DNA of 64,000 nucleotides from a virus. Positions within the stretch are counted from its first letter, which is position 1. Every line of letters begins with the position of its first letter. Both the position numbers and the translations under genes were made by a program. The stretch is from IMG/VR virus record IMGVR_UViG_3300022539_000562; one strand, 5' to 3'. The notes beneath the pieces are model-generated. The model was not told where the DNA came from. It saw nothing but the letters and a program-made list of their open reading frames with translations, and did no database searches. Positions 2,389 to 13,313 of the stretch are shown one piece after another.

Positions 2389-2464
2389 TGGAGCCAGCAG
2401 TCGGGTTCGAACCGACGACCTGTTCATTACAAGTGAACTGCTCTGCCAACTGAGCTACACTGGC
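2389..2464 (-). tRNA. trnT: tRNA-Thr(UGU)
   Basis: Cloverleaf; GTTCA-CT TGT AA-TGAAC; encoded CCA. Confidence 0.95.
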
Positions 2465-2539
2465 TGGAACTGGTGATGGGACTTGAACCCACAAAACTGA
2501 CTTGGAAGGACAGCATTTTGCCAATTAAATTACACCAGC
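2465..2539 (-). tRNA. trnG: tRNA-Gly(UCC)
   Basis: Loop CT TCC AA; U73; CCA. Confidence 0.9.
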
Positions 2540-2614
2540 TGGGGTAAGTGGCGAGACTTGAACTCGTATCTCATTGGTTCACAGCCAACACGCATTAACT
2601 TATGCTACACTTAC
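2540..2614 (-). tRNA. trnH: tRNA-His(GUG); base at -1 is C, not G
   Basis: Loop CT GTG AA; acceptor GTAAGTG/CACTTAC; C73; CCA. Confidence 0.9.
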
Positions 2615-2615
2615 G

Positions 2616-2689
2616 TGGCAAATCCACAAGGACTCGAACCTTGAACTTCTGTTTTGGAGACAGATATTTTTCCATTAAACTATGGATTT
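2616..2689 (-). tRNA. trnW: tRNA-Trp(CCA)
   Basis: TCTGT-CT CCA AA-ACAGA; G73; CCA. Confidence 0.93.
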
Positions 2690-2765
2690 TGGTAACAGAG
2701 GAGGGACTTGAACCCCCAACCTTCTGGATGTAAGCCAGACAATCTACCATTGATAATACTCTGTT
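2690..2765 (-). tRNA. trnV: tRNA-Val(UAC)
   Basis: TCTGG-CT TAC AT-CCAGA; CCA. Confidence 0.93.
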
Positions 2766-2839
2766 TGGCTGAGAAGAAAGGATTCGAACCTCTATCAATG
2801 GATTCAAAGTCCACTATCCTACCATTAGACGACTTCTCA
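2766..2839 (-). tRNA. trnQ: tRNA-Gln(UUG)
   Basis: GTGGA-CT TTG AA-TCCAT; U1:A72; G73. Confidence 0.93.
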
Positions 2840-2899
2840 TGGATTTAGTTATTATTTAAACTAAATTTTTTATTAAACCATAAAATATAATTATCAAAT

Positions 2900-2976
2900 T
2901 GGTATTCAGGGTAGGACTCGAACCTACATTAAACAGATTCTAAGTCTGCTGTGTTTGCCAATTACACCACCTGAAC
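2900..2976 (-). tRNA. trnL: tRNA-Leu(UAG), short variable loop
   Basis: GCAGA-CT TAG AA-TCTGT; variable region TTAAT (5 nt); A73. Confidence 0.9.
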
Positions 2977-3054
2977 TGGTGCTTGAAACAGGATTCGAAC
3001 CTGTATAAAATGGATTTTGAATCCACTATGTTTGCCTAATTACATCATTCAAGC
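2977..3054 (-). tRNA. trnL: tRNA-Leu(CAA), short variable loop
   Basis: GTGGA-TT CAA AA-TCCAT; variable region TTTAT. Confidence 0.9.
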
Positions 3055-3131
3055 TGGTGTACAAGGTCAGATTCGAACTGACAAAAGATGGATTTTAAGT
3101 CCATTATGTTTACCAATTACATCACTTGTAC
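3055..3131 (-). tRNA. trnL: tRNA-Leu(UAA), short variable loop
   Basis: ATGGA-CT TAA AA-TCCAT; variable region CTTTT. Confidence 0.9.
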
Positions 3132-3208
3132 TGGTAGCGGGAGTGGGATTCGAACCCACGACCTTCTGGTTATGAGCCAGTTTATCTACCTGACTGATAT
3201 ATCCCGCT
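3132..3208 (-). tRNA. trnM: tRNA-Met(CAU), initiator-like; A1 shared with the CCA of the upstream tRNA-Pro
   Basis: CTGG-CT CAT AA-CCAG; GCGGG/CCCGC acceptor; GAAGGTCGT variable/T region as in fMet; A11:U24. Confidence 0.85.
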
Positions 3209-3284
3209 GGTCAGAGTGAAAAGATTTGAACTTTTGACCTCATGTTCCCAAAACACGCGTTCTACCAGACTGAACTACACTCTG
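3208..3284 (-). tRNA. trnP: tRNA-Pro(UGG)
   Basis: CGTGT-TT TGG GA-ACATG; C1:G72; A73. Confidence 0.93.
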
Positions 3285-3361
3285 TGGTGGAACGAACAGG
3301 ACTCGAACCTACATCTTCCTGATTAAAAGTCAGACGCTTTACCATATTAAGCTATCGTTCC
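3285..3361 (-). tRNA. trnK: tRNA-Lys(UUU)
   Basis: TCTGA-CT TTT AA-TCAGG; CCA. Confidence 0.95.
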
Positions 3362-3436
3362 TAGTTGTATTGATGAGATTTGAACTCATATCTTGATGAT
3401 TAAGAGTCATCTGTTTTACCAATTAAACTACAATAC
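3362..3436 (-). tRNA. trnK: tRNA-Lys(CUU), possibly degenerate (3' CTA instead of CCA; 6-bp acceptor)
   Basis: GATGA-CT CTT AA-TCATC; ends ...CAATACAACTA. Confidence 0.75.
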
Positions 3437-3513
3437 TGGCTGTGCAGGTAGGATTCGAACCTACATCTTTGGGATTAACAGTCCCACATTTTACCAATTA
3501 ATACTACTACACA
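3437..3513 (-). tRNA. trnN: tRNA-Asn(GUU)
   Basis: TGGGA-CT GTT AA-TCCCA; G73. Confidence 0.95.
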
Positions 3514-3631
3514 TGGATTATAAGTCCTCACGCTTATAATACTACAATATAAGTCCCTGTGCTTATCAAAGGCAACCTATATAATTTTATCTCTTATCAA
3601 AATTTATGATAATTTTTTATATTAGATATTT

Positions 3632-3720
3632 TGGCGGAAGAGACAGGATTCGAACCTGTGTGGGTTTTACCCCAATGGATTAGCAGTCCATCTCGATAAA
3701 CCTGACTCTGACACTCTTCC
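3632..3720 (-). tRNA. trnS: tRNA-Ser(GCU)
   Basis: ATGGA-CT GCT AA-TCCAT; long variable arm; G73. Confidence 0.95.
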
Positions 3721-3728
3721 TGGATTAA

Positions 3729-4151
3729 TTATTTCTCCTTCAATCCATATTTTCCATCAAACCATTTCAAATAATCATCAATTCCTTGTTTTCCATATTT
3801 ATAATAAATATAATCATATGCTCTTTGATGTAATAATCCATGTTTTGAATTTGATAATAATATAATTTCATCATTATTTTCTTTTAAATAAATATGATGC
3901 TTACATAATATATTTCTTGCTTTTTCTCTAAATTCAGAATTTTGCCATTGTTTCTTTGTTGCTATCCTTAAATTTTTTTTATGTTCATCAGTTAATTTTC
4001 TACCTGTAAGTGCTTTGCTTATTTTTTTTCTAGTTTTTTCAGAATATTTTTTAGTTTTTAAATTATGTCCATTAATATACTTATTTCCTAATTTTACAAT
4101 TTGTCCACATCCACACTTACAATATTTTATTTTAATTTCACATAATTTCAT
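3729..4151 (-). CDS. Free-standing NUMOD3/HNH-like homing endonuclease inside the tRNA array
   Basis: CKCGCG, NUMOD3 repeats (SEKTRKKISKAL, TDEHKKNL), CKHH..SNSKHGLLH. Confidence 0.75.
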   Translation of the reverse strand: MKLCEIKIKYCKCGCGQIVKLGNKYINGHNLKTKKYSEKTRKKISKALTGRKLTDEHKKNLRIATKKQWQNSEFREKARNILCKHHIYLKENNDEIILLSNSKHGLLHQRAYDYIYYKYGKQGIDDYLKWFDGKYGLKEK

Positions 4152-4184
4152 TTTATTCTCCTAATTGATATAAATATTAAATTC

Positions 4185-4270
4185 TGGTAGACGAGGTAGG
4201 ATTCGAACCTACGAAGCTCTCAGCAATGGTATATAAGACCATCTCCTTTAACCTGCTTGGATACTCGTCC
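4185..4270 (-). tRNA. trnI: tRNA-Ile(UAU) with long, Tyr-type variable arm
   Basis: ATGGT-CT TAT AT-ACCAT; 13-nt variable arm TGCTGAGAGCTTC; 86 nt; CCA. Confidence 0.85.
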
Positions 4271-4359
4271 TGGTAGACAGGATAGGATTTGAACCTATGA
4301 AACTTTAATAGTAATGGCATATCAGACCATTCTCTTTGACCAAACTTGAATACCTGTCC
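4271..4359 (-). tRNA. trnI: tRNA-Ile(GAU) with long, Tyr-type variable arm
   Basis: ATGGT-CT GAT AT-GCCAT; 15-nt variable arm TACTATTAAAGTTTC; 89 nt; CCA. Confidence 0.85.
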
Positions 4360-4431
4360 TGGAGACAGAGAGGGGAGTCGAACCCCTGTGGATAGTTTTG
4401 CAGACTACCTCGATTCCAAATCTACTCTGTC
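4360..4431 (-). tRNA. trnC: tRNA-Cys(GCA)
   Basis: GTAGT-CT GCA AA-ACTAT; U73. Confidence 0.93.
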
Positions 4432-4507
4432 TGGTGGAGAAATTTGGAATTGAACCAAAACCTACAGGTCTTCAACCTATCGTGCAGACCTCTTACACCA
4501 TTTCTCC
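4432..4507 (-). tRNA. trnF: tRNA-Phe(GAA)
   Basis: ATAGG-TT GAA GA-CCTGT; G1 is the last base of the HNH stop codon TAG. Confidence 0.92.
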
Positions 4508-4962
4508 TATCTTATTTGATTATGACATCTAATACATAAAGTTAATAAATTATCTAATTTATTATTTTTCTTATTATCATTAATATGATGAACATGCAAT
4601 TTTTGATTATATTTTTTAATATATTCCTCCTGAGTTATTCCACATTTTTGACAAATATGATTATCTCGTTCCCTAATAAATTCTTTTAACTTATTATTAA
4701 ATTCTGGAGAATAAGGTTCAAATGATTTGCCACCTTGCCAATTAGGATTATTTTTACCTCTCATAATTTTTTTAATTGTTTTTCTATATTTAGGATTTTT
4801 CCAAACTTGTTCCATACTTTTACTAACACTTATGCTTATATTTTTCCTATGTTCTTCAGTAAGTTTTTTACCTTTATGTGCTTTACTTATTTTCTTTTTA
4901 ACTTTTTTAGAAACTATATGTCCTTTAACAAATCTTCCTTTATTATTTCTATCTTTGTTCAT
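4507..4962 (-). CDS. Free-standing NUMOD3/HNH homing endonuclease inside the tRNA array
   Basis: NUMOD3 repeats; NNPNWQGG; RDNHICQKC...LHVHHI...NLLTLCIRCH. Confidence 0.85.
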   Translation of the reverse strand: MNKDRNNKGRFVKGHIVSKKVKKKISKAHKGKKLTEEHRKNISISVSKSMEQVWKNPKYRKTIKKIMRGKNNPNWQGGKSFEPYSPEFNNKLKEFIRERDNHICQKCGITQEEYIKKYNQKLHVHHINDNKKNNKLDNLLTLCIRCHNQIR

Positions 4963-4981
4963 TTTTATCCCCCATATTTTT

Positions 4982-5058
4982 TGGCGACACTAACGGGATT
5001 TGAACCCGTATCTCTTGCGTGACAGGCAAGTGTCATAACCTGATTAGACCATAATGTC
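4982..5058 (-). tRNA. trnD: tRNA-Asp(GUC)
   Basis: CTTGC-CT GTC AC-GCAAG; G73. Confidence 0.95.
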
Positions 5059-5133
5059 TGGTAGAACTAGTGAGAATCGAACTCACATCATATGCTTGAA
5101 AGGCATATATCCTAACCATTAGACCATAGTTCC
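5059..5133 (-). tRNA. trnE: tRNA-Glu(UUC)
   Basis: TATGC-CT TTC AA-GCATA. Confidence 0.93.
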
Positions 5134-5223
5134 TGGCGGAAAGAGTAGGATTCGAACCTACGGAAGTTTTACCTTCAATAGTTTTCAAGACTATCACAAT
5201 AAACCTGACTCTGACATCTTTCC
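5134..5223 (-). tRNA. trnS: tRNA-Ser(UGA)
   Basis: ATAGT-CT TGA AA-ACTAT; long arm; G73. Confidence 0.95.
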
Positions 5224-5309
5224 TGGTGGAGAGAATAGGATTTGAACCTACGAACCCATACGAGAGCAGTTTTACAGACTGCCTGCTTTAACCACTTGCA
5301 TATCTCTCC
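5224..5309 (-). tRNA. trnY: tRNA-Tyr(GUA)
   Basis: GCAGT-CT GTA AA-ACTGC; 14-nt arm TCTCGTATGGGTTC. Confidence 0.95.
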
Positions 5310-5386
5310 TGGTACGCCTGGTAGGACTTGAACCTACATCTTGCGGATTAGAAGTCCACTGTTCTATTCCATTAAACTACAGACGT
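5310..5386 (-). tRNA. trnR: tRNA-Arg(UCU)
   Basis: GTGGA-CT TCT AA-TCCGC. Confidence 0.95.
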
Positions 5387-5462
5387 TGGTGGAGATAGAG
5401 GGACTTGAACCCACAACTTCAGGGTGCAAACCTAATGTTTTTCCAATTAAAACTATATCCCC
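5387..5462 (-). tRNA. trnA: tRNA-Ala(UGC)
   Basis: TTAGG-TT TGC AC-CCTGA; G3:U70. Confidence 0.95.
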
Positions 5463-5541
5463 TGGAGTGCCTGATGAGATTCGAACTCACAATCTATGGG
5501 TTCGTAGCCCATTGTTTTATATCCAATTAAACTACAGACAC
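5463..5541 (-). tRNA. trnR: tRNA-Arg(ACG)
   Basis: ATGGG-CT ACG AA-CCCAT; CCA. Confidence 0.93.
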
Positions 5542-6706: not shown

Positions 6707-8692
6707 TCACTTTAATAATCCCAGAATTGTATCTTTTTCTAAATCTTCTGGTGCAAGAGAAATATCGTAATCTTTTTTATCACTAGTAATTTCTGCACCT
6801 GCCATTTCTAAAATATCATTTAATTTAATAGTATTTCCATAAAAGTTAAATAGATATTTTCTACTATGTTCAGTAAAATTTGCATTATAAGAAGTTATTG
6901 AACATCCTATATGTGTTTCAGCAAAATAAAATCTGTTTTCATTAGGATTTGTAATTATAAGTCCTAATATTTTTTGTTGTTGTTTGATATTACTATGACA
7001 TACTACTGCAACATTATTTGGATTTACCATATAGTTCTTTCCAAAATTAGATATCTTTTCTTCTGCTATAACTATCTTAAATGGTACTTCAATATTTTCA
7101 TCAAAATTATAATAATTTACAAATAGAATTAATGCATCATCTTCTTGTTTTCTAACATAAAATAATTCAGTAGCCCCTTTTTGTGCATCTGTTAAATCTC
7201 CTGAAAACAAAATATCTCCTTCATCTGACCTATAACTAGCATCCCATCCTATTTTTGTGCTTTTGGAAATTACAGATAAATCTAAATCAATTCTATTACC
7301 TTTAACATTTTCCCAATATACCCCAAAGACCATATCTCTGGGAATTGTTACATAAGTACCAGATGGAAAATTACCTGTAAATTGTTTCTCTGTTGCTGGT
7401 AAGGTATATGTTATATTCTCTGGAATATAAATTTTCTTACCTTTAACATTTTTGCTAATATCTTCTACTATTGAATTTAAAACAATATCTAATACTTGTT
7501 TTGCTCCTTCTTTATTATCAAAATTAAAATCAGTTGCATATCCTTTACCATTTCTAATTCTATATAATATGCTATCAACATCTTTTGTTCTATATTTCAA
7601 AGCATATGCTAATCTTATTTTTCTAAAAGTATTAACTTTGTTTAATTCATTTTCTAAAATAAAATCATATACGCCCAACCCTTTTTTCAATTTAGTAGTA
7701 ATGCTATTTAAATAATCTATTGGCATTGGTTTATGATACTTTTTAGCAAGTCTTCCAATTCTATTTACTATTGTTTTTAATTGTCTATTTGTTCTCAATG
7801 CTAACCATAAAGGTTTAAATCTATAAAATATTTCTGCTAATTTTTCAAATCCATATTGTCTTTTATATTGTTCCAATAAATTAACAATATGTATATCTTT
7901 TTTTTCCTTAACTGCTGCTATAAGTCCAGGACTTTTAATTAACAAAGTGTTTCCTGTAATTTTATAAATAATAAATCTTAAAAATTCAACTGGATTTTCA
8001 GGTATTAAGTTTAAATAACTATACATAGTCGCTTTAATTTCTTTATTTCTAATAGTAGCCAAGTCTTGTTCATCTACTCCCACAAACAATGCTATATCTA
8101 TTACATCTTTAATAGTATCTTCTGCAAGAGCAATACCCATATTAAGCAAATTCATTAATTTTTCTTTCAATTCTTTTTTAGTATAACCTTGTATTACTAC
8201 CAATTTAATATTATCTATTTCAAGTCCTGGAATATTCAATTTTTCTTTTGGTATATAAATATAACCACTATCTATTGATTTATCTACATCAAAGTCTTCA
8301 AGTTCTAATATTTTCTTACCAAGATTATCTACGCCCCATTGTGCTCCTTTTTCTACTACATATTCTGCTGGATAATCACTTTCTACACCATAAGTAGTTA
8401 AATAATGAGCCAACTGTTCTACTACTAATTGCTCCATAGGAGTATCCTTAACTTTTAACCAAGACTTATGAAAAGAAGCATTTAATTTTTCAGCAGTCAT
8501 TCCATATATGTCTTGCACCATTTCAATAAGTTCAACATAGTTTGTATAATTACAAGCAATCTCTGGTGCAAAAACAAAACCCATTTTAATAGTATTCGCC
8601 AAAAGGTCTAAATCACTTACTTTATAAGTTCGTGCTTTCAATCTTTTTGATTTTACTGGTAATCCTTTAAATAATCTAATACTTGCTTTCAT
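6707..8692 (-). CDS. 661-aa protein with C-terminal TerD-like domain
   Basis: C-terminal GVYW..IDLDLS...LFSGDLTDAQKGATE resembles TerD; N-terminal NASFHKSW..EQLAHYLTTYG block. Confidence 0.6.
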   Translation of the reverse strand: MKASIRLFKGLPVKSKRLKARTYKVSDLDLLANTIKMGFVFAPEIACNYTNYVELIEMVQDIYGMTAEKLNASFHKSWLKVKDTPMEQLVVEQLAHYLTTYGVESDYPAEYVVEKGAQWGVDNLGKKILELEDFDVDKSIDSGYIYIPKEKLNIPGLEIDNIKLVVIQGYTKKELKEKLMNLLNMGIALAEDTIKDVIDIALFVGVDEQDLATIRNKEIKATMYSYLNLIPENPVEFLRFIIYKITGNTLLIKSPGLIAAVKEKKDIHIVNLLEQYKRQYGFEKLAEIFYRFKPLWLALRTNRQLKTIVNRIGRLAKKYHKPMPIDYLNSITTKLKKGLGVYDFILENELNKVNTFRKIRLAYALKYRTKDVDSILYRIRNGKGYATDFNFDNKEGAKQVLDIVLNSIVEDISKNVKGKKIYIPENITYTLPATEKQFTGNFPSGTYVTIPRDMVFGVYWENVKGNRIDLDLSVISKSTKIGWDASYRSDEGDILFSGDLTDAQKGATELFYVRKQEDDALILFVNYYNFDENIEVPFKIVIAEEKISNFGKNYMVNPNNVAVVCHSNIKQQQKILGLIITNPNENRFYFAETHIGCSITSYNANFTEHSRKYLFNFYGNTIKLNDILEMAGAEITSDKKDYDISLAPEDLEKDTILGLLK

Positions 8693-8715
8693 TTAATCTC
8701 CTTTCAAAATTTTTA

Positions 8716-8774
8716 GTGGCGAGAAGTAAATGTCAATCTGCCCGAAGGCAGGAAATAGGAACTTCTTATGCCAC
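8716..8774 (-). ncRNA. Structured RNA motif family A, copy 3 (just 5' of the TerD-like gene)
   Basis: GTGGC-ATA-AGAAGT-TCCTATT..CTGCC(TTCG)GGCAG..ACTTCT-C-GCCAC. Confidence 0.8.
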
Positions 8775-8811
8775 ATTATACAATTTCTTTAAACTTATTT
8801 ATACCTATTTT

Positions 8812-8876
8812 GATGACGAGAAGTAAAATGCAAATAGGGTTTCCCCTATATATTAATAGGAACTTCTTATGTCATC
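8812..8876 (-). ncRNA. Structured RNA motif family A, copy 4
   Basis: GATGAC-ATA-AGAAGT-TCCTATT..ATAGGG(GAAA)CCCTAT..ACTTCT-C-GTCATC. Confidence 0.8.
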
Positions 8877-8890
8877 TTTGTTAAATTTTT

Positions 8891-9418
8891 GGAGTAGTTG
8901 TTAAGTACAACTACCAAAACTGACATGCTCACTTTCAGCTTCTAGGATATCTTAGCTGAGACAAACCTTGCGATTCATAAGCACATTAATAATTGTTACA
9001 GTACAACTACTAAAACTGGGGGATTAACTCAAATGATAAAGCATCAATTTGATATTACCCATCCACCACTTTATTTTTTTCAAGAGTAATAAAGAAAACT
9101 CTTGTGGAAGAACAACATACTGCCAATATGATTTCTGACTTTCAACTAAATATAATAATCAAAATTAAAACTGGATTCTTATTTATAGAAGACAACCCAG
9201 CTAAAACTTCTGCCCCATGACGAAATGAGTACCAAGTTATTTTTTCTTAAAAGAAATAACTAAAACTTTTGTTCCAGTGATGAAACTGGTATACACAATG
9301 ACCTGTCAAGCTTGGTATTATTTTTTGATAAAGAAGAAATAATAAAAACTTCTTGTGCGTGTCGTCTAGTAGCACAAAACCACATCTCCAAAACCAAAGT
9401 TATTTTATCAAAGAACAA
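8891..9418 (-). repeat. Array of about six hairpin-AAAACT-stemloop elements (family B)
   Basis: AAAACT ends at 8921, 9017, 9100, 9208, 9267 and 9350, each directly after an inverted repeat on the + strand. Confidence 0.6.
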
Positions 9419-10030
9419 TTAAATATTTTCACTATCACTAAATTTAAAATCATCACATATTTCCAGATTTAACTTAGATTTTGCTATATAACCCTCTTTT
9501 AATTCAAATTTATTTACTATCATTTTGCAATAGTTTATAAATTCTTTATGTGTTCTATTAGATTTAGTTGTATTACATTTGTGACAAATAATCTGAACAT
9601 TATTCATATTTAATATTTTCTCATTATCAATTCTATCAAGTGCTGGTGAATTATCTTGTATACCTTTTCCTCTATTATAATTCATTTTCACATTACAATA
9701 TGTACAATATTTAATATTTTTTGCTAATATTATCAATTCATTTCTAGAAATATTTACTTGATATTTTCTTTTATGTTTACTTATTGTACTGTTAACCCAT
9801 AAATAATAAGAATCAGAACTTCTTCCATCTATCCAATTAGGATTATTTTCACCACATAATACTATACTTAAATTTCTTTTATGCTCTTCAGTTAATTTTC
9901 TACCTTTTAATGTCTTACTTATTTTCTTTTTAGTTTTCTCAGACCGATTTTTATTTTTCCAATATTTTGCACTATTCTCACTTAATTTTTTTTTGTGCTC
10001 TTCTGTTTGTTTATACCCTTTTTTAGCCAT
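9419..10030 (-). CDS. NUMOD3/HNH homing endonuclease
   Basis: KKGYKQTEEH; NNPNWIDG; CTYC..ALDRIDN..NVQIICHKCN. Confidence 0.85.
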   Translation of the reverse strand: MAKKGYKQTEEHKKKLSENSAKYWKNKNRSEKTKKKISKTLKGRKLTEEHKRNLSIVLCGENNPNWIDGRSSDSYYLWVNSTISKHKRKYQVNISRNELIILAKNIKYCTYCNVKMNYNRGKGIQDNSPALDRIDNEKILNMNNVQIICHKCNTTKSNRTHKEFINYCKMIVNKFELKEGYIAKSKLNLEICDDFKFSDSENI

Positions 10031-10190
10031 TTTTCATTTTTTTGTCACAAATTTCCTAAATAATCTTTCTGAAAATTTTAAATATTCACAATTATTTACT
10101 TTATTACATTTAACGCTTTTACACCATCTTCTATTAATCAATATTTTTTCTTTTTCTACCCAACATTTATTTTTCACAATTTATCCTCTA

Positions 10191-11275: not shown

Positions 11276-12831
11276 TTATTTCACCTCTCTTGTCAGAGTA
11301 AATTTTTTATCATTAATAATAAAGTTTCCCATAAAATTTTGAACATTTTGAGCATTTAAAACAAATCCCTTAAAAGATAATTCATCACCATTATCAATTA
11401 TCTTGATTATATTTGGATGCAAAAAATTATACCAAAATCCTCCTTTTTCATTTTCTTCTGTTCCTTTATAATCCAAAGTAAATGTCTTACTATTAAAAAT
11501 CAACTCAACACTATCTTTTACACACAAACAGTATGTTAGTTCTTTCACTTATTTCATCTCCTTATTCTTCTAATTCCTTTTGTATTTGATGCAAAGTTTT
11601 TAATATTAACCTTTGAATATTATTATTTAGTTTTTTTAAATTTTTTAATTCATCTTTACTTGCAAATTCTCTTAATTTTAAAATTTCTTTTTTCGCTTTT
11701 ATAAGCACTTGTAAAGTAAATGAATAATTATCATTATATCTTTCCATTATTTCACCTCCTTTGTTGCATCTTTCATTTTTAACATTTCTCTCAAATTTTT
11801 TCTTATTTTCTTTAATTCCCTCATCTGTCCCTCTATCATCATTAAAGAATGCCATAGAGTATCTTGATTAACTTGCGTAAAATTCGCTACTTTTTTCATT
11901 TATTTCGCCTCCTTTTTATTTTATTAGAAATCTAAAATATCATCTAGAAATTTTAAATGTAGAAAATTTCTAATCTTATTTATTCTTGTTTCCAATTCAT
12001 TCACTGCCCCAGTAAGTTCATTTACATTCTCAATAAGTTTATTCACTTCTTCAACAATAACTTTTAATGCTTCATCAACAGTTATATCTTTTTTTCTTTC
12101 TCTTTTTTCGTTCATTTTCATCTCCTTTTAATTACTTCATTAAAAAGTTTCTTTTGTTCATCAGTTAATTCTTTGTACATACCAATTATACCTTCTAATG
12201 CATTCATTTTGTCAACTACTTGTTCAATAGTTTTTATATCTTTTTTCTTTTCCTCTAACATTTCATCCTCTTTGTAACCAGTGCCTATTTTATCATCTGT
12301 AAAATGAATGCCATATTCTATATAATAACCATCTTCTATTGCTTTCATTTCAAGCTTTTCTGCACCTTCTATTGCATCCTCAAGTGATTTTCCCTTATAT
12401 ACTACATTTCCATATCCAGTTGAAGCACACATATGCATTACTTTAAAATTCTTTTTACTAATTAATAAATAATTATCTGCACTCATTAATTCTCCTTTTT
12501 ACTATTTTTAATAATTTTTATTGTTGCATCTATTATATTAATTACACACCTCCAAAAATACAGATATCCTCCAAAAACTAATATTTTTATTAACCAATGT
12601 GCTTTATTCAATTCTTCAAAAAAATTATTCATTTTTTTAACCTCTTATATAATAATATCCAAAAATTATCACAAAAATCCACCATAATATTAAGACAAAT
12701 TTTCCTGTTTTAGATAATGTTGTATATGTTTCTACATATAACATACTCTTTAAAACTTTAAATACCTTTTTAAAAACATATATCACATCACTAAATAAAA
12801 TGTCATATAACCATTTAAAAAATTTTATCAT
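11276..12831 (-). other. Run of small hypothetical CDSs (11276-11548, 11562-11855, 11924-12121, 12118-12486, 12637-12831 membrane)
   Basis: Co-oriented, closely packed ORFs, most with GGAG(G) SDs. Confidence 0.6.
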
Positions 12832-13313
12832 TATTTTTCCTTTCTTAATGGTAAAAGTTCTCCTAAAATTGATTCTCTAACACTTTGAAAAGCATCAATA
12901 CAACATTCTGCTCTAAATTCATTTTCTTTATTTTTAGAGTGCTTTAACTTATATCGCCAATATTTAATACATCTATCTAAATATTCTTTTAGTACTTTGC
13001 TTTCTATATAATCTTTCATTTGTTCCTCCTCTCCAAATACTTCTTCATGAGTCAAAAATCTTCCTTCTTTTGCATCTTTCATTCCTGCTTTTATATTCTT
13101 AATAAATTCATCTGAAAACACTAAATTTTTTTCATTACACAATTTTTTGAAAAATTTACTAAAGAAAAAAATTTCCAAACCTATAAATTCATTAGTTTCT
13201 GGGTCAAGTCTCAATAAAATATCATTTGCCAATTCAATTGTAACAGCAGGTCTATTATCTATTAAAAACATAAAAGTATCCTCATCTTTATTATATAATA
13301 TTTTAACTTTCAT
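12831..13313 (-). CDS. DUF2283-like N-terminus fused to an antitoxin-like segment
   Basis: YNKDEDTFMF..DILLRLDPETNEFIGLEI; AGMKDAKEGRFLTHEEVF. Confidence 0.45.
   Translation of the reverse strand: MKVKILYNKDEDTFMFLIDNRPAVTIELANDILLRLDPETNEFIGLEIFFFSKFFKKLCNEKNLVFSDEFIKNIKAGMKDAKEGRFLTHEEVFGEEEQMKDYIESKVLKEYLDRCIKYWRYKLKHSKNKENEFRAECCIDAFQSVRESILGELLPLRKEK

Follow-up and report, generated by a model that had tools for sequence, protein, structure and literature searches.

The two isoleucine tRNA genes of this phage are built with a long variable arm and a short D arm like those of a tyrosine tRNA, and we consider it probable, from their sequences, that both are working tRNA-Ile genes on a body of the phage tRNA-Tyr lineage, which would be charged by IleRS. 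The genes for tRNA-Ile(UAU) (4185..4270) and tRNA-Ile(GAU) (4271..4359) are on the minus strand of the analyzed stretch of 64,000 nucleotides (hereafter, the window), and they abut with zero spacer. ARAGORN called both as tRNA genes, 86 and 89 nt long, respectively; both are class II shaped and belong to the Rfam tRNA family RF00005, with 56.2 bits for the UAU gene and 49.5 bits for the GAU gene against the full model (gathering threshold, 29 bits).

The acceptor stems are GGACGAG/CUCGUCU in the UAU gene and GGACAGG/CCUGUCU in the GAU gene, and G1:U72, C4:G69, A73, and an encoded CCA are common to both. The D stem is 3 bp long in each case (UCC/GGA with the loop AAGCAGGUUAAA in the UAU gene, and UUC/GAG with the loop AAGUUUGGUCAAA in the GAU gene), and both D loops have the form AAG..GGU..AAA. 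The anticodon loops are CUUAUAU and CUGAUAU, respectively, with A37 and U38 in both. The variable arm of the UAU gene (U-GCU-GAG-AGC-UUC) comprises 13 nt and that of the GAU gene (U-ACU-AUUAA-AGU-UUC) comprises 15 nt, each with a 3-bp stem and a UUC tail; the loops of this extra arm are GAG and AUUAA, and those in other members of the family described below are AU, GAGA, UAC, UAAU, CAAU, and UUCG. Thus, neither gene has the class I architecture, which is a variable loop of 4-5 nt and a 4-bp D stem. Both have the 7/5 arrangement of acceptor and T stems, normal 7-nt anticodon loops, and full cloverleaves, and they are 73% identical to each other outside the anticodon loop. In minimum free energy (MFE) folds of the single sequences (z-scores, -1.3 and -0.8), the 3-bp D and variable stems were missing, whereas the other three arms (acceptor, anticodon, and T) were recovered; we regard such folds as uninformative for AT-rich tRNAs. 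A preliminary description of this DNA had claimed a long-arm, Tyr-type scaffold, with the lengths and arm sizes given here, for both genes, and ARAGORN, Rfam, and our reading of the sequence confirm it. The Tyr-like 3-bp D arms that it reported were recognized in both genes when the sequence was read against the ARAGORN cloverleaves, and its G1:U72, C4:G69, A73, and U38 are likewise present in both.

The Ile pair is part of an array of 26 tRNA genes for 20 amino acids (2389..5541, minus strand), called by ARAGORN and all confirmed by the Rfam tRNA model. Most genes of the array abut, and the array is broken up by homing-endonuclease genes. An open reading frame (ORF) of 140 aa that resembles homing endonucleases (3729..4151, minus strand; phrog_314, E 4e-6, and phrog_655, E 5e-5) lies directly downstream of the Ile pair, and an HNH endonuclease ORF of 151 aa (4507..4962, minus strand; phrog_8446, E 6e-21) lies upstream of the Phe-Cys-Ile-Ile block. 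Contigs from cold-seep and sediment runs join position 4507 straight to 4982 and skip the HNH ORF between tRNA-Phe and tRNA-Asp; thus, the HNH gene is a mobile insertion that a relative lacks. The record is an IMG/VR virus contig of 115,399 bp with 26% GC and an estimated completeness of 99%. Since the 26 tRNAs of the window are all the tRNAs of this record and the long-arm pair are the only Ile tRNAs among them, the earlier statement that the phage has no short-arm tRNA-Ile holds for the entire record. A scan for promoters and terminators found 23, against 16 expected, which is not above the background in AT-rich DNA. One DNA run bearing the sequence is a marine sediment metagenome, which is probably the source of the contig, and the runs with a small share of it are from cold-seep and sediment samples; no RNA run bearing the sequence was found among the runs listed. 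When contigs of four runs were compared with the array, related short contigs were found over other tRNAs, and no listed piece or variant covered 4185-4359.

Three other tRNAs or sets of tRNAs in the array bear on the Ile pair. The tRNA-Tyr(GUA) gene (5224..5309, minus strand, 86 nt; called by ARAGORN, included in the alignments A1 and A3, and scoring 84.9 bits with the model R1 described below) has the D arm UGC-AAGUGGUUAAA-GCA and the variable arm U-CUC-GUAU-GGG-UUC, that is, the design that the preliminary description had matched to the Ile genes; it differs from the Ile pair in having G1:C72 and G4:C69. The T arms are homogenized within the phage. The tRNA-Leu genes with UAG, CAA, and UAA anticodons (2900..3131, minus strand; ARAGORN) are the reverse case, as had also been noticed: they are 77-78 nt long and class I shaped, with 5-nt variable loops. 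They retain A14, A15, G18G19, A20a, U48, and A73, which include E. coli-type determinants for LeuRS; the best reading is that these are Leu tRNAs from which the arm was lost. The juxtaposition of short-arm Leu and long-arm Ile tRNAs had been termed an arm swap. The term is useful as a description, but no arm was exchanged between Leu and Ile, because the D loops of the Leu tRNAs are Leu-type and the bodies of the Ile tRNAs are Tyr-type. The sole CAU tRNA (3132-3208) has A1:U72 and G4:C69 and lacks the run of three G:C pairs in the anticodon stem, and looks like an elongator Met tRNA rather than an initiator or a lysidine-type Ile2 tRNA; decoding of AUA in this set therefore rests on the UAU tRNA.

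The Ile pair belongs to a conserved family of phage tRNAs that is apparently undescribed in the literature. The GAU anticodon is carried on the same scaffold by eight or more further distinct sequences from tRNA arrays of phages or metagenomes (L146, which is on the same contig as L014 and L098; L158; L183; L148/L177/L206/L220; and L164/L188/L197/L201), and the family spans 26-57% GC. We searched with a pattern in which a long spacer separates the anticodon loop of tRNA-Ile from a standard T loop. In IMG/VR, one further case (L014) was found, and in the JGI metagenomes, ten distinct loci of 40-57% GC have a GAU tRNA in which the D arm matches (UA-UCC-AAG.N.GGU.CAAA-GG) and the extra arm, of 2-3 bp, has UUC at its end. 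Most of the JGI loci lie within arrays of 8 to 45 tRNAs, as counted in the retrieved part, and most of the other arrays have, as retrieved, no GAU tRNA apart from the long one. A search of IMG/VR for the D-arm motif with no constraint on the anticodon showed that the scaffold carries GUA (Tyr) in another phage (L222) as well as in the present one. The D-arm motif TATCCAAGYNNGGTNCAAAGG gave 11 matches in 185,579 species genomes, none of which is within a tRNA.

A covariance model (R1) was built from ten Ile and two Tyr sequences (alignment A1). The family was defined by UA at positions 8-9, a 3-bp D stem of the UCC/GGA type, a D loop of the form AAG..GGU..AAA, an extra arm of 2-3 bp with a UUC tail, A73, and a GAU or UAU anticodon. 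Family members score from 84.9 to 97.8 bits with R1, and the window pair falls within this range (89.3 bits for the UAU gene and 87.2 bits for the GAU gene); the top outsider, a canonical tRNA-Tyr, scores 67.8 bits, and the remaining tRNAs of 100 loci score 60 bits or less. In the model-fitted alignment of the 12 sequences (A3), 99.3% of the cells are paired and compensatory changes occur in 18 of the 23 pairs; none of 500 shuffles reached the observed value, and slid controls fell to 40-50% paired. Covariation was observed in all five helices. The extra arm is not a chance hairpin, since all three of its pairs show compensatory changes across the 12 sequences.

A survey of IMG/VR for long-arm Ile tRNAs, which the preliminary description had proposed, was thus productive: after L014, a looser scan (CTGATAA, a long spacer, and a T loop) found 37 loci whose tRNA-Ile(GAU) genes are at least 80 nt long. 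These fall into three groups, namely, distant Tyr-like members (L265, L319, L263, L307, L267, L347, and L346 among them; 61-75 bits with R1 in this group), tRNAs with an ordinary Ile body and an inserted hairpin, and Ser-like singletons. Long-armed GAU tRNAs therefore arose several times in phages. In the second group (L268:5785-5875 and L306:3974-4064, 91 nt, as well as L255, L282, and L344), a variable hairpin is inserted in a tRNA-Ile(GAU) with an ordinary Ile body and a UAGCUCAG..GGUUAGAGC D arm, and in some of these loci a normal copy of 78 nt is adjacent. In these genes, the Ile tRNA acquired its long arm independently.

Other searches delimit the family. We found no published account of a phage tRNA-Ile of class II in full-text literature searches. 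The array had no match among GenBank phages by megablast or blastn, and blastn of L146 and L197 against the same set found no family member, only a T-arm match in a tRNA-Ser. The exact 17-mer of the UAU anticodon arm gave, in IMG/VR, chance matches and two phages with an ordinary short tRNA-Ile(UAU). The top DnaE relatives of the phage are only 35-37% identical to it; among the larger ones, G001 has 12 tRNAs and G002 has none, and G003, with about 30 tRNAs, has an ordinary short-arm Ile(UAU) and lacks a long-arm Ile tRNA. The ORFs flanking the array of L197, a metagenome contig of 57% GC, had no PHROG match, and the arrays of 57% GC may belong to phages, plasmids, or chromosomes.

The amino acid that the pair carries was considered from the codons of the phage and from identity elements. 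In an alignment of DnaE (1202 aa) with 80 homologues, the columns at ATA and ATT codons are dominated by Ile (0.25 and 0.34, respectively), followed by Leu, Val, and Met, the columns at TTA, TTG, and CTT codons are dominated by Leu, and those at TAT codons by Tyr; because these are the standard meanings, the phage genome uses the standard code. Ile codons make up 9.7% of the codons used, with ATA at 48 and ATT at 46 per 1000, and this nearly equal split fits service by a UAU and GAU pair. The genome was also searched for aminoacyl-tRNA synthetases, as had been suggested, and neither a class Ia synthetase nor a TyrRS/TrpRS was found; thus, host enzymes must charge the Ile pair.

For the identity elements, we used the bacterial or E. 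coli sets (PMC9976931), from which the synthetases of the phage's host may differ. The E. coli set for IleRS comprises G34 or L34, A35, U36, A37, and A73, with C4:G69, U12:A23, C29:G41, and A38 as minor elements (PMC9976931). The GAU gene has the GAU anticodon and A37, and the UAU gene has A35, U36, and A37, so that both agree with the anticodon rule, except that U34 of the UAU gene lies outside the set; since U34 is not a known E. coli determinant, the UAU species may be a poor substrate of IleRS in some hosts. Both genes also have A73 and C4:G69. The other minor elements are replaced in the window pair by C12:G23, G29:C41, and U38, and the family member L146 does have C29:G41 and A38. The C4:G69 pair is present in 8 of the 10 Ile tRNAs of the family (about four independent lineages), compared with 26% of 293 other tRNAs from the same loci and one of seven Tyr tRNAs. 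For TyrRS, U35 is critical and G1:C72 is a determinant in bacteria (PMC9976931). The Ile pair has the body of a tRNA-Tyr, in that it combines a class II shape and a short extra arm (3 bp) with A73, but it has A35 and G1:U72; A35 is found in all of the Ile tRNAs of the family, and G1:C72 is replaced in 8 of 10 of them and kept in both Tyr versions of the scaffold. LeuRS needs A73 with the Levitt pair A15:U48 and A20a and ignores the anticodon, and SerRS needs G73 and a longer arm (PMC9976931). The Ile pair has A73 but G15:C48 instead of A15:U48, and its A73, 3-bp arm, and 7/5 arrangement differ from the G73, the arm of at least 5 bp, and the 8/4 or 9/3 arrangement of tRNA-Ser and allo-tRNAs.

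These results bear on an either/or in the preliminary description, which took the pair as a new class of Ile tRNA that fits IleRS or as mischarging tRNAs that mistranslate the Ile codons of the host. Our results favor the former, because the Ile slot of the set is filled by the pair, the codons have their standard meaning, and the determinants for IleRS are present and the key ones for Tyr, Leu, and Ser are absent. For the latter to apply, the Tyr-like or generic class II body would have to be recognized by TyrRS, LeuRS, or SerRS and the tRNA charged with the corresponding amino acid, by analogy with allo-tRNAs or the nev-tRNAs of nematodes. Features of the Tyr type are indeed seen in the D arm, the variable arm, and A73, the GAU species retains G34, the top match of R1 outside the family is a canonical tRNA-Tyr, and LeuRS, with its need for A73, ignores the anticodon (PMC9976931). 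However, the critical U35 of TyrRS is A35 here and its G1:C72 is G1:U72, the pair has neither the A15:U48 of LeuRS nor the G73 of SerRS, and the array contains a separate tRNA-Tyr(GUA) and a full Leu set. Furthermore, mischarging would harm the phage first, since 9.7% of the residues of its proteins are specified by Ile codons of standard meaning and it has no other Ile tRNA, and on the same ground the proposed mistranslation of host codons is not supported. Mischarging as the role of the pair thus seems very improbable; a low level of tyrosylation might occur, to judge from A73, G34 of the GAU species, and the Tyr-type arm, all of which are common to tRNA-Tyr.

Two further explanations concern function and age. 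The genes could be a recent, neutral remolding of the phage's own tRNA-Tyr, drifting, poorly functional, and without wider significance. The tRNA-Tyr of the window does share the design, its identity to the two Ile genes is 64-66% outside the anticodon loop, and the homogenized T arms would fit such a local origin. When the acceptor stem is removed, however, the nearest bodies to both window genes are the long-arm Ile(GAU) tRNAs of other phages (L158, L265, L146, and L183), with the window's own Tyr ranked behind them, and a recent local origin is therefore disfavored. The span of 26-57% GC across the family and the compensatory changes in every helix also indicate long-term selection instead of recent drift, and we regard this explanation as very unlikely. 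It has also to be considered that the pair is a decoy or sponge for a host tRNA-targeting nuclease, toxin, or modifying enzyme, with the Ile anticodon as bait. Phage tRNAs do counter tRNA-cleaving defences, and the related array L098 has RtcB and phosphoesterase genes; however, no RtcB was found in the window phage, the acceptor stems are intact, and with the encoded CCA, full cloverleaves, and normal 7-nt anticodon loops, the pair constitutes the sole Ile tRNAs of a complete set that fits the codon use of the phage. A role as decoy, which would be compatible with decoding, is highly improbable as the explanation of the pair.

Under the preferred reading, in which the pair are working Ile tRNAs on a Tyr-lineage body, the GAU tRNA would read AUU and AUC and the UAU tRNA would read AUA. 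A phage tRNA-Tyr lineage, rather than an ordinary tRNA-Ile, would be the source of the D arm, the variable arm, and G15:C48: a phage tRNA-Tyr gene may have gained an Ile anticodon, lost U35 and G1:C72, and acquired C4:G69, if the direction of change is as we infer, and a subsequent duplication in this phage would have given the GAU and UAU versions. We expect a single transcript of the array, from which host RNase P and 3' processing would release the tRNAs by cuts at the abutting junctions, with the CCA already encoded. Host IleRS, which relies chiefly on the anticodon, A37, and A73 and to a minor extent on C4:G69, would then charge both tRNAs. As a class I synthetase, IleRS approaches the acceptor stem on its minor-groove side, which would leave the variable region exposed to the solvent; thus, tolerance of a short extra hairpin is plausible. 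The pair would supply Ile decoding for a genome of 26% GC, in which AUA and AUU each account for about 5% of the codons. The extra arm would have been inherited from the Tyr ancestor and retained under selection; either G15:C48 and the UUC tail may lock it structurally into the body, or the arm may be of use in evading host factors.

Class II shaped tRNAs with other anticodons (His, Cys, Gln, Asp, Thr, Asn, Gly, and Met) were also observed in the arrays of the family. The premise of the preliminary description that long arms are confined to the Leu, Ser, Tyr, and Sec tRNAs therefore fails for phage tRNA arrays. A long-arm tRNA-His(GUG) of 84-89 nt is present at L148:5301-5384, L164:5149-5233, L197:6077-6161 (minus strand), L098:14663-14750, and L183:1967-2055 (minus strand). 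In L148, L164, L197, and L098, it has a Leu-like body with a GAAAUGGUAG-type D loop and a 4-bp extra arm and keeps G-1 and C73, and that of L183 is on a different scaffold; tRNA-His is another class I tRNA, in addition to tRNA-Ile, that recurs in class II form in these arrays. Other off-class long-arm tRNAs are those for Cys (L197:2671-2758, 88 nt), Gln-CUG (L206:546-630, 85 nt), Asp (L183:2572-2657, 86 nt), and Thr (L158:1433-1517, 85 nt), and those for Asn, Gly, and Thr (80-96 nt) in L263 and L319. Short-arm Leu(UAA) or Leu(CAA) occurs alongside long-arm Ile in L098 and in the arrays of 57% GC. L098, an array of 46% GC with 35 tRNAs, one of them a family member, encodes an RtcB RNA ligase (phrog_1075, E 5e-142) and two phosphoesterases, in the regions 8423-10181 and 12609-13256, and a tmRNA (86-476), which together look like a tRNA-repair module. 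At L015:1400-1560 and L012:3940-4056 (both minus strand), where ARAGORN made no call, about 90 nt separate a Leu-type 5' half (GCGGAAUGGUAGACGC) from a T arm and the 3' half of the acceptor stem; an insertion or an intron may have interrupted a tRNA-Leu gene here.

It is conceivable, if rather doubtful, that class switching in phage arrays is adaptive and that the tRNAs keep their identity while they evade host factors that recognize the tRNA body. Such a tentative reading would cover Ile, His, Cys, Gln, Asp, Thr, and Asn on class II bodies together with the arm-stripped Leu tRNAs, and the evaded factors, again only tentatively, could be defence nucleases, acetylating toxins, or modification enzymes. 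If this were true, the Ile tRNA on a Tyr scaffold would be a natural 'disguised' tRNA and a ready-made scaffold, charged by IleRS and invisible to host factors specific for tRNA-Ile.

Textbooks and reviews of identity elements restrict the long variable arm in bacteria to Leu, Ser, Tyr, and Sec tRNAs. Here, in one genome, the whole Ile isoacceptor family is class II shaped and the Leu family is class I shaped, and the long-arm Ile form is a conserved family across phage or metagenome arrays, common to unrelated phages and not an oddity of one. If IleRS charges the pair, the enzyme tolerates a Tyr-type body, and the family would be a natural data set on Ile versus Tyr identity, with U35 and G1:C72 lost and C4:G69 gained. 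The finding also concerns annotation, in that scoring of the body by amino acid type would flag such tRNAs as mismatched or recoding, and it may be of interest for the design of orthogonal tRNAs and for the arms race between phage and host over tRNA-targeting defences.

Among known systems, the canonical tRNA-Ile(GAU) and the rare TilS-independent tRNA-Ile(UAU) of the Mycoplasma mobile type share the anticodons, A37, A73, and C4:G69 with the window pair, and presumably also the task, namely, reading of AUU and AUC and of AUA without lysidine. However, those tRNAs are of class I, with a variable loop of 4-5 nt, a 4-bp D stem, U12:A23, and C29:G41, from all of which the window pair differs. Phage-derived clusters in Mycobacterium with a tRNAIle-TAT (PMC6582537) resemble the window in that a phage-type array lies beside HNH genes. 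The bacterial class II tRNA-Tyr(GUA) is similar in its 3-bp D stem, AAG..GG..AAA loop, G15:C48, A73, and 13-nt variable arm with a 3-bp stem and a UUC tail, whereas the window pair has GAU or UAU, A35, and G1:U72, and has gained C4:G69.

Allo-tRNAs (PMC5389517) and the nematode nev-tRNAs (PMC3333845) are similar to the pair in the combination of a long arm with off-class anticodons, including UAU. However, allo-tRNAs (Mukai et al. 2017, PMC5389517) have 8/4 or 9/3 acceptor and T stems and Ser identity (G73), and the window pair has 7/5 and A73. The G73 type also includes the long-arm UAU tRNAs that we found in bacterial MAGs (L107, L151, and L157), to which R1 gives only about 51-55 bits. The nev-tRNAs are nematode-specific class II tRNAs with anticodons for neither Leu nor Ser, and they are reported to read an alternative leucine code (Hamashima et al. 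2012, PMC3333845); the window pair differs in that its body is Tyr-type and in that it occupies the Ile position of a full set. The change of class in the opposite direction is known from the type I, short-arm tRNA-Leu(CAA) of Streptomyces coelicolor, which is still charged by its cognate synthetase (Fan et al. 2019, PMC6614811), and a tRNA-Leu(TAG) with a short loop is present in a phage-derived Mycobacterium cluster (PMC6582537). These are the counterparts of the three short-arm Leu tRNAs of the window; in those cases the arm was lost in Leu, whereas in the window it has been gained or retained in Ile.
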